DNA of 64,000 nt, taken from assembly GCF_055900595.2 (NCBI RefSeq), contig NZ_CM148325.1. One strand, given 5' to 3'. Below, one piece after another: positions 21,370 to 23,406 of this stretch; position 1 is the first letter of the stretch, and each line of letters begins with the position of its first letter. The notes under the pieces were generated by a model that saw nothing but the letters and a program-made list of their open reading frames with translations, did not search any database and was not told the DNA's origin. The position numbers and the translations under genes were made by a program.

Positions 21370-22416
21370 TCAGAAGCGGGTATCAACCGCAGAGGCGAGT
21401 TTTTCGACCAGGCGTTCGGTATCTTCCCAGCCCAGACACGGGTCGGTAATCGATTGACCGTAAGTGAGCGGCTGACCGCCGACGATTTTTTGCGTTCCTT
21501 CGCGCAGGAAACTTTCCGCCATAATTCCAGCAATCGCCGTAGAGCCATTGCGGATTTGCTGACAAATATCCTCACAAACTTCTAACTGGCGACGGTGCTG
21601 CTTCTGGCAGTTACCGTGGCTGAAATCCACCACCAGATGTTCAGGTAAATCAAACTCGTGCAACGTATCGCAGGCAGCGGCGATATCATCCGCATGGTAA
21701 TTCGGCTTTTTGCCGCCACGCATAATAATGTGGCCATACGGATTGCCGCTGGTCTGATAGATGGTCATTTGACCGTTTTTGTCAGGCGAGAGGAACATAT
21801 GGCTGGCGCGGGCAGCGCGGATAGCATCCACGGCAATTCGCGTGTTGCCATCGGTACCATTTTTAAAACCTACCGGACAAGAGAGTGCCGAAGCCATTTC
21901 ACGGTGGATCTGGCTTTCGGTAGTACGTGCGCCAATCGCGCCCCAACTGATTAAATCAGCAATAAACTGACCGGTCACCATATCGAGGAACTCAGTCGCG
22001 GTAGGGACGCCCAGCTCATTGACCTGTAAAAGTAATTTGCGCGCCAGCTCCAGACCGTGATTTACCCGGTAGCTGCCGTTTAAATCCGGATCGGAGATTA
22101 GCCCTTTCCAGCCGACAACAGTTCGTGGTTTTTCAAAATAGGTGCGCATTACGATTTCCAGCCGTGACTGGTACTGGTTGCGCAGCGACTGCAGACGGGT
22201 GGCGTACTCCATTGCAGCGGTGAGATCGTGGATCGAGCAGGGGCCAATAATGACCAACAGTCGCTTATCTTCACCATTCAGTATTTTTTCAATTCTGCGG
22301 CGGGAGTCGGTGACATGGGTGGCGACGCCAGGCGTTACGGGATACCGTAGCGCGAGTTCGGCGGGCGTTACCAGGCTCTCAATACGCGCAGTACGGAGTT
22401 CGTCAGTTCTGTTCAT
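21370..22416 (-). CDS. aroH: DAHP synthase, Trp-sensitive isozyme
   Basis: 348 aa ORF, recognised AroH sequence. Confidence 0.95.
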   Translation of the reverse strand: MNRTDELRTARIESLVTPAELALRYPVTPGVATHVTDSRRRIEKILNGEDKRLLVIIGPCSIHDLTAAMEYATRLQSLRNQYQSRLEIVMRTYFEKPRTVVGWKGLISDPDLNGSYRVNHGLELARKLLLQVNELGVPTATEFLDMVTGQFIADLISWGAIGARTTESQIHREMASALSCPVGFKNGTDGNTRIAVDAIRAARASHMFLSPDKNGQMTIYQTSGNPYGHIIMRGGKKPNYHADDIAAACDTLHEFDLPEHLVVDFSHGNCQKQHRRQLEVCEDICQQIRNGSTAIAGIMAESFLREGTQKIVGGQPLTYGQSITDPCLGWEDTERLVEKLASAVDTRF

Positions 22417-22560
22417 TACAAGTCTCAGAAATTTGTTGCTTCTACGGCAGGACTACCGGGAAGTGATGCGCATCACGATAAACCAATCGCAGCTGATTTC
22501 AAGTGCGAGGTGTGTCACACCTCGCCGGGTGGTTAGCATGATAACAAAAAAACAAGCTAA

Positions 22561-22580
22561 TGCACTAGTTCTCTAGTACA
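22561..22580 (-). promoter_or_regulatory. Putative TrpR operator of aroH
   Basis: Minus-strand read TGTACTAGAGAACTAGTGCA with two CTAG cores; overlaps ppsR stop codon. Confidence 0.6.
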
Positions 22581-23406
22581 TTCGACGACTAAGGCCCATG
22601 ATATCAAGGATCTTGGTGGCAATCTCTTCTACCGAATAATTGGTACTGTTAATCCACGGGATCTGATTTTTACGGTACAACGCTTCCACTTCCGCGACTT
22701 CCATCCTGCACTGACGAAGCGAGGCATAGCGACTGTTCTCCCGACGTTCCTCGCGAATCGCCGCCAGACGTTCCGGGTCGATAGTCAGGCCGAACAATTT
22801 ATGCTGAAGCGGTTTGAGCGACGCGGGTAGCACCAGATTATCCATATCGTCGGCAATAAAGGGGTAGTTTGCCGCGCGGATACCAAACTGCATTGCCAGA
22901 TACAAACTGGTGGGGGTTTTACCACAGCGAGAAACGCCGAGCAGGATCACCTGTGCCTGGTCCAGATTGCGTAATGAAATGCCGTCATCATGGGCGAGGG
23001 TGTAATCAATCGCCGCAATACGTGCATCATATTTATTGAGATTATTAGGGTTAAGGCCGTGGGTACGATGAGCAATCGGCGTTGGGTCCAGTTTCATCTC
23101 TTGTTGTAGCGGGGCAACCAGCGCCTGAACGATATCCTGGCAAAAGCCTTCACTTTGCAAGATGATGGCGCGAATCTCCGGCAACACGATGGAGTAGAAT
23201 ACCAGTGGGCGCACACCTGTCTGGTGATAAATTGCGTCAATCTGATCCTTCACTGCCCGTGCACGGCTCTCATTTTCGACAAACGGCAGCGTAATGCTGC
23301 TGATAGTGACGGGAAATTGTGACATTACTGCGTGTCCTAATACCTCCGCAGTTATTGCCGTACCATCAGAAATATAAAAAACGTGGCGATCAACAGCATT
23401 ATCCAT
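22573..23406 (-). CDS. ppsR: PEP synthetase regulatory protein (bifunctional kinase/pyrophosphorylase)
   Basis: 277 aa ORF with P-loop GVSRCGKT; divergent from ppsA. Confidence 0.94.

Follow-up and report, generated by a model that had tools for sequence, protein, structure and literature searches.

The TrpR operator of aroH overlaps the end of the neighbouring ppsR coding sequence

The operator of aroH has been a model site for the tryptophan repressor TrpR since the 1980s, and the repression that TrpR exerts on aroH is modest. The classical papers on this operator and on TrpR binding are reportedly those of Zurawski in 1981, Kumamoto in 1987, Klig in 1988 and Jeeves in 1999. A comparative-genomics study has described repression of aroH by TrpR in Escherichia coli and its close relatives only. 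Both the operator and its regulation are already known, and the overlap with the stop codon of ppsR (ydiA) can be read off any annotated E. coli genome; the overlap, its conservation and its codon footprint are unsurprising to a specialist. Our literature search found no paper that treats aroH together with ppsR in the sense of an operator overlap.

The 64,000-nucleotide stretch of DNA analysed here (the window) is E. coli chromosome, collinear with K-12 MG1655 1810865..1746862 in reverse orientation, with 97.3% identity and no large insertion. Window positions were converted as K-12 = 1788435 + (22416 - window position). The stretch spanning ppsR and aroH matches several RefSeq genomes at 100% identity, and both genes are named in RefSeq. 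Over 261 bp it is 98% identical to K-12, where the operator 19-mer and its flanks are found unchanged at 1788272-1788290. The window strain thus carries the same element between the same neighbouring genes with zero operator differences; within the aligned stretch the departures from K-12 are a G for A in the spacer (window 22553), two synonymous ppsR sites and two further bases of the aroH leader. The features at the gene junction are as follows.

22561..22579, minus strand: TrpR operator of aroH, GTACTAGAGAACTAGTGCA (top matrix match in the window, 16.8 bits)
22573..23406, minus strand: ppsR coding sequence, PEP synthetase regulatory kinase/phosphorylase, 277 aa (open reading frame and RefSeq annotation)
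22573..22575, minus strand: ppsR stop codon TAG, within the left CTAG core of the operator
21370..22416, minus strand: aroH coding sequence, Trp-sensitive DAHP synthase, 348 aa, the regulated gene (open reading frame and RefSeq annotation)

A first-pass annotation of the window had proposed that a double-CTAG palindrome within 22540-22600, some 150 nt upstream of the aroH start codon and overlapping the ppsR stop codon, is the TrpR operator of aroH. Each element of this description was borne out. We located GTACTAGAGAACTAGTGCA on the minus strand at 22579..22561, 145-163 nt upstream of the A of the aroH ATG (22416), with its centre at 154.5 nt. Its 18-bp near-palindrome, GTACTAGAGAACTAGTGC, occupies 22579..22562 and is centred between 22571 and 22570. 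The minus strand at the gene junction reads ...CGA ATG TAC TAG AGAACTAGTGCATTAGCTTGTTTTTTTGTTATCATGCTAACC..., and the first seven bases of the operator comprise the last base (G) of the Met276 codon, TAC for Tyr277 and the ppsR stop TAG (22575..22573), which sits in the first CTAG of the palindrome; these seven bases belong to both elements.

The site stands alone in the window. Allowing up to three mismatches, both the 19-mer GTACTAGAGAACTAGTGCA and the ideal trp operator GTACTAGTTAACTAGTAC match this single place in 64 kb, with 0.01 matches expected for each; the aroH operator agrees with the ideal at 15 of 18 positions and differs at three. The arrangement CTAG-N4-CTAG likewise occurs once in 64 kb, at the aroH operator, against 0.28 occurrences expected. 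We then scored all 18-mers of the window with a leave-one-out TrpR matrix built from the other four K-12 operators, located upstream of trpL/E (GAACTAGTTAACTAGTAC), trpR (GTACTCTTTAGCGAGTAC), aroL (GTACTAGTTTGATGGTAT) and mtr (GTACTCGTGTACTGGTAC), with aroH excluded. The aroH site ranked first at 16.8 bits, compared with 11.2 bits for the runner-up and 18.3-23.7 bits for the training sites. The gene downstream is annotated as the Trp-sensitive DAHP synthase, placing the regulated gene within the metabolism of tryptophan and aromatic amino acids, and its product in relatives matches PF00793.

We compared the position of the operator with published aroH transcription starts, from which the following features were placed.

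22531, minus strand: aroH P1 transcription start (K-12 1788320); the leader is 115 nt (SMRT-Cappable-seq)
22538..22546, minus strand: extended -10 of aroH P1, TGtTATCAT (read from the sequence; spacing fits the start)
22561..22566, minus strand: -35 position of aroH P1, AGTGCA, a weak match with a 17-bp spacer (derived from the start at 22531 and the -10)
22505..22525, minus strand: GC-rich hairpin GCGAGGTGTG-A-CACACCTCGC, P1 transcript +7..+27 (folding, -15.6 kcal/mol, z = -4.0)
22475..22502, minus strand: aroH P2 promoter, TTGAAA-16-TATCGT (promoter scan)
22467..22468, minus strand: aroH P2 transcription start, 51-52 nt ahead of the ATG (Kim 2012 and SMRT-Cappable-seq)
23437, minus strand: ppsR transcription start (K-12 1787414), of a ppsR + aroH transcript that crosses the operator (SMRT-Cappable-seq)

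The entries for this locus in the SMRT-Cappable-seq operon table (NC_000913.3) include an aroH (b1704) unit from 1788320, given as a primary 5' end, a second aroH unit from 1788383, and a forward ppsR-aroH (b1703|b1704) unit from 1787414 that is labelled 'novel'. A TEX-enriched study of transcription starts in glucose minimal medium reported a single aroH start at 1786408 (NC_000913.2), 51 nt before the ATG and with 414 reads, together with starts of ppsR at 25 and 30 nt upstream of its ATG (Kim 2012). Two database promoters, aroHp1 and aroHp2, were targeted in a CRISPR-activation preprint, and its guide positions back-calculate to starts at about 1788318 (about window 22533) and about 1788384. 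The former lies within 2-3 nt of the SMRT-Cappable-seq end at 1788320, and we took the directly reported position, window 22531, over the guide-derived one as the start of P1; a reading of the -35 and -10 elements alone also predicts a start near 22531. The Cappable-seq and Mendoza-Vargas supplements hold zero entries for the ppsR-aroH locus.

With this start, the P1 hexamer TATCAT (22543..22538) falls at -12..-7, with TG at -15/-14, and we infer that AGTGCA (22566..22561), wholly inside the right arm of the operator, is the -35 hexamer. The operator extends from -48 to -30 relative to the P1 start, is centred at -39.5 and includes the -35 position. The first-pass annotation had named an aroH start mapped far from the palindrome as the observation that would speak against it; with P1 starting at window 22531, aroH transcription begins close by. 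In the classical description the operator presumably lies over the -35 region, and the P1 geometry agrees with this.

Taken together, the sequence of the element, its single occurrence in the window, its score under the TrpR matrix, where it lies relative to mapped 5' ends and how well it is conserved (below) indicate that it is almost certainly the known aroH operator of TrpR, which, going by the literature on binding, would occlude P1. When tryptophan is abundant, Trp-bound TrpR dimers would bind the near-palindrome GTACTAGAGAACTAGTGC and cover the -35 position of P1, a promoter that combines a weak -35 with an extended -10. RNA polymerase would thereby be kept off P1, and less Trp-sensitive DAHP synthase would be made. 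Because P1 directly abuts the co-oriented ppsR gene, the left half-site coincides with the last base of codon 276, TAC and TAG.

Three classes of transcript reach aroH, arising from P1, from P2 and by read-through from ppsR, and the operator is at the -35 of P1 only; its overlap with a promoter core element holds for P1 and not for P2 or ppsR read-through. Since P2 and read-through also supply aroH transcripts, TrpR would control only part of aroH expression, and with one class in three carrying the operator at its -35, modest repression by TrpR would fit. That only P2 was reported for aroH in glucose minimal medium (Kim 2012) suggests that P1 may be a minor contributor under some conditions.

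The read-through transcript bears on a further possibility, that TrpR bound at the operator also acts as a roadblock to polymerases arriving from ppsR, so that tryptophan gates the ppsR-aroH co-transcript. A transcript crossing the operator does exist in the SMRT-Cappable-seq data, and the operator is positioned exactly at the ppsR gene boundary; however, those data were pooled from minimal and rich media, and the tryptophan dependence of the transcript cannot be read from them. Set against this possibility, which we consider unlikely, is also the general behaviour of the class: roadblocks formed by small repressors, TrpR among them, are usually weak. On the opposite strand, the strong 3' end of an RNA antisense to ppsR is among the entries of a published Term-seq table, at about window 23203 on the plus strand (K-12 1787648, minus).

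Being a palindrome at the end of a gene, the element would also form a hairpin in the ppsR mRNA, and with the U-run that follows, it might be read as the intrinsic terminator of ppsR. A consensus scan does call AATGTACTAGAGAACTAGTGCATT followed by AGCTTGTTTT terminator-like, and the predicted RNA fold of the palindrome is a 10-bp stem of -12.1 kcal/mol (z = -2.3). Yet the stem is A+U-rich with three G-C pairs, the U-run begins 3-6 nt beyond it, and the corresponding T-run is unconserved beyond Escherichia, Citrobacter and Salmonella. Transcription also argues otherwise: the SMRT-Cappable-seq entries examined for the locus include a ppsR-aroH transcript from the ppsR start and no ppsR-only unit, and none of the entries listed in two 3'-end studies falls at 17882xx-17883xx. 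On stem composition, non-conservation of the T-run and read-through, we rejected intrinsic termination of ppsR as the main function, a role that we judge very improbable, and retain the reading as a TrpR operator.

Downstream of the operator, a GC-rich hairpin is predicted near the 5' end of the P1 transcript. Strong hairpins of unrelated sequence occupy the same place in the P1 leader of Enterobacter and Lelliottia (CGGGGCG..CGCCCCG), of Leclercia and Silvania (CAGGGCA..TGCCCTG) and of Pseudenterobacter; among 65 unique sequences, about 29 have a hairpin at this position. The hairpin could stabilise the 5' end, or could signal pausing or termination to polymerases reading through from ppsR. 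An Rfam search of window 22300-22700 with E up to 1 returned zero matches.

The P2 promoter is the most conserved non-coding stretch of the ppsR-aroH intergenic region. A perfect 14-bp palindrome, GTGATGCGCATCAC, lies at 22463..22476 on the minus strand and spans the -10 and the start of P2. Its arms, GTGAT and ATCAC, are conserved across Enterobacterales, and its four central bases vary (GCGC, CGCC, CATC, CCCC). We take the pattern GTGA-N6-TCAC to resemble a CRP-type site. As the P2 start lies inside this palindrome, a protein site acting at the DNA level is suggested rather than an RNA hairpin.

Conservation of the operator was assessed in 80 of at least 563 loci, from species-representative genomes with a PpsR of at least 90% identity and spanning more than 25 genera of Enterobacteriaceae. 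In 76 of the 80 loci, and in Klebsiella besides, an operator-like 18-mer starts exactly 4 nt ahead of the ppsR stop. TATnAT follows the operator at fixed spacing in the conserved loci, and the P1 -10 hexamer is kept in this form throughout 77 unique intergenic sequences. Conservation of the non-coding right arm, CTAGT.C (CTAGTRC), equals that of the coding left arm. On the coding side, the ppsR stop is TAG in 15 loci (Escherichia, the Citrobacter freundii group, Franconibacter and one metagenome-assembled genome, or MAG), TAA in 65 and TGA in none. Codon 277 is TAC in 78 of the 80 loci, its third-base conservation ranking 6th of 232 degenerate codons (median 64%), and the two loci with TAT, L034 and L037, are the two in which the stop-overlapping operator is missing or decayed. 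As judged from these sequences, the overlap appears to constrain the choice of both the last codon and the stop codon of ppsR. The seven bases common to a regulatory site and a coding end would then carry a measurable synonymous- and stop-codon constraint across a bacterial family. Elsewhere in the gene, codons 10-12 (about 23379..23371, minus strand; Phe-Tyr-Ile, TTT TAT ATT) have third bases that are 95-97% conserved in the 80 species, placing them among its most constrained synonymous sites and possibly reflecting the region of translation initiation or a signal belonging to the divergent ppsA.

Three loci separate the operator from the ppsR stop. L034 and L041 each have an insertion between ppsR and aroH, and in both a complete operator, GTACTAACAAGCTAGTAC, stands beside the aroH promoter while ppsR keeps its Met-Tyr-stop ending; in L071 the operator is displaced to 20 nt past the ppsR stop. 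That the full operator stays with the aroH promoter in all three indicates that its left half is kept for its own sake and not merely as coding sequence, and that the operator and the ppsR ending are both kept in uncoupled loci indicates two functions maintained independently.

These loci also weigh on a more sceptical account, in which the palindrome is a by-product of the C-terminal codons of ppsR and chance, or serves P2, and is no functional operator of P1. Met-Tyr-stop does dictate 7 of the 19 operator bases, and P2 is the sole aroH start in the study of Kim 2012. A by-product, however, would not be expected to show a non-coding right half, CTAGTRC, conserved equally with the coding half, nor to follow aroH as a whole operator where the two genes have been separated; relatives outside Enterobacteriaceae have the same Met-Tyr-stop ending without the right half-site, and the chance expectation is 0.01. 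As for P2, the centre of the operator lies about 102 bp upstream of its start, too far for occlusion. The conservation pattern rules against a coding or chance artefact, and we regard this account as extremely improbable next to that of a TrpR operator at P1.

The inserted sequences between the ppsR stop and the operator are about 1.45 kb long in Kosakonia sacchari (L041, 3755-5207) and about 200 bp in a soil MAG (L034, 3835-4036). They are alike at their left ends, TTGCAGTT(T)AATGG.T.GCT.TTAGAT.AA.AGCAGAAGCGGAGA.AGGCAAAGGA.CCCTACGCC, and the operator beyond them keeps GTACTAA. In seven loci of the C. freundii group the ppsR-aroH gap is 125-126 nt, about 30 nt shorter than in E. coli; the missing bases include the leader hairpin and the P2 -35 motif CTTGAAAT, and the operator, with its TAG stop, and the P1 -10 are retained.

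Within E. coli, the ppsR-aroH region is present in 5,420 of 5,426 complete genomes, and the exact 30-mer around the operator in 4,252 of the 5,426. The only natural variation that we saw within the 19-mer is at the third base of the stop codon, TAG to TAA, in 16 of the 5,426 genomes; the other natural variants sampled change only the spacer at window 22555-22557, outside the 19-mer. Records with the TAA stop (for example NZ_CP007592.1, NZ_CP019359.1 and NZ_CP025268.1) have the CTAA left core typical of other genera, and one of them, which bears the label K-12 MG1655, may be a derivative recoded by engineering. The operator variant of one sampled locus that is labelled E. coli in GTDB (L004) has zero exact matches in the 5,426 complete E. 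coli genomes.

A disrupted operator was found in a single sampled record, that of the engineered RF1-free strain B-95.deltaA, in which TAGAGAA has become TGATCTG. At the equivalent of window 22569..22575 this strain (NZ_CP085842.1 1731969-1732109) carries ATGTACTGATCTGCTAGTGCA in place of ATGTACTAGAGAACTAGTGCA; the full edited form is GTACTGATCTGCTAGTGC, and the common form of the operator in Enterobacteriaceae is GTACTAATATGCTAGTAC. Its authors report that in replacing TAG they introduced 4-5 successive mismatches directly downstream, and here the recoded stop together with four deliberate mismatches after it rewrote the left half and the spacer of the operator. With these changes the TrpR matrix gives 9.2 bits instead of 16.6, a score at background level for the window. 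By this measure the recoding of B-95.deltaA damaged the predicted aroH operator. If so, stop-codon recoding projects unintentionally alter aroH regulation, and B-95.deltaA exemplifies how genome recoding that treats the bases after a stop codon as free can harm a neighbouring operator.

To look further afield, we included eleven more genomes of Enterobacterales, namely Klebsiella and ten outside Enterobacteriaceae (Erwiniaceae, Yersiniaceae and Pectobacteriaceae). The ppsA / ppsR / DAHP-synthase arrangement is retained in all eleven. Klebsiella has the overlapping operator, at 18.2 bits, and the matrix scan found a full operator in none of the ten others, which agrees with the published limit of TrpR control of aroH to close relatives of E. 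coli. In eight of the ten (Erwinia, E. tracheiphila, Pantoea, Mixta, Dickeya, Musicola, Serratia and Yersinia) the best score for any site was 5.3 bits or less. The C-terminal residues of PpsR are RRMY in Erwiniaceae and Pectobacteriaceae and RRMF in Yersiniaceae, and where the operator is absent the ppsR endings vary: TAT-TAA in Erwinia and Dickeya, TAC-TGA in Pantoea, Mixta and Musicola, TAC-TAA in E. tracheiphila, TTC-TGA in Serratia and TTT-TAA in Yersinia. A TGA stop occurs in four of the ten genomes outside Enterobacteriaceae compared with none of 81 within (one-sided exact p ~8e-5, phylogeny ignored).

The two remaining genomes, Lonsdalea and Affinibrenneria (Pectobacteriaceae), have ppsR ending in ATGTACTAGTAC..., so that a perfect palindrome of 10 bp, GTACTAGTAC, sits on the stop codon. 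It scores 15.6 and 10.1 bits, respectively, and is either a minimal TrpR site of the single ACTAGT type or a coincidence.

The P2 region (GGTTGAAT ... TGGTTTATTGTGATnnnCATCACTTCCCGG) is recognisable in seven of the ten outside genomes, including Erwinia, Pantoea, Mixta, Serratia and Yersinia. Since P2 is widely conserved and the operator is limited to Enterobacteriaceae, the simplest history is that P2 is older and that the operator and P1 were added. We put at about even the chances of a fuller version of this history, in which the operator and P1 are an Enterobacteriaceae-specific addition upstream of the older P2 that recruited a ppsR ending of the form ATG-TAY-TRA as its left half-site; since then TAC would have become fixed and TGA excluded, and lineage switches between TAG and TAA may tune TrpR affinity.

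Among the known TrpR sites, the operator of the trp operon (trpO), GAACTAGTTAACTAGTAC, shares its architecture with the aroH near-palindrome, both having two ACTAG cores in an 18-bp near-palindrome. The aroH operator differs in its asymmetric central AGAA and in having G instead of A in the right arm. The two also differ in placement: trpO overlaps the -10 region of its own promoter, whereas the aroH operator lies at the -35 position, and trpO has no overlap with a coding sequence, whereas the aroH operator overlaps the end of ppsR. The operators of trpR, mtr and aroL, which lie upstream of genes of the tryptophan and aromatic amino-acid regulon, share the GTAC...GTAC outer frame with aroH and depart further from the ideal site, at 4-5 positions compared with three for aroH.
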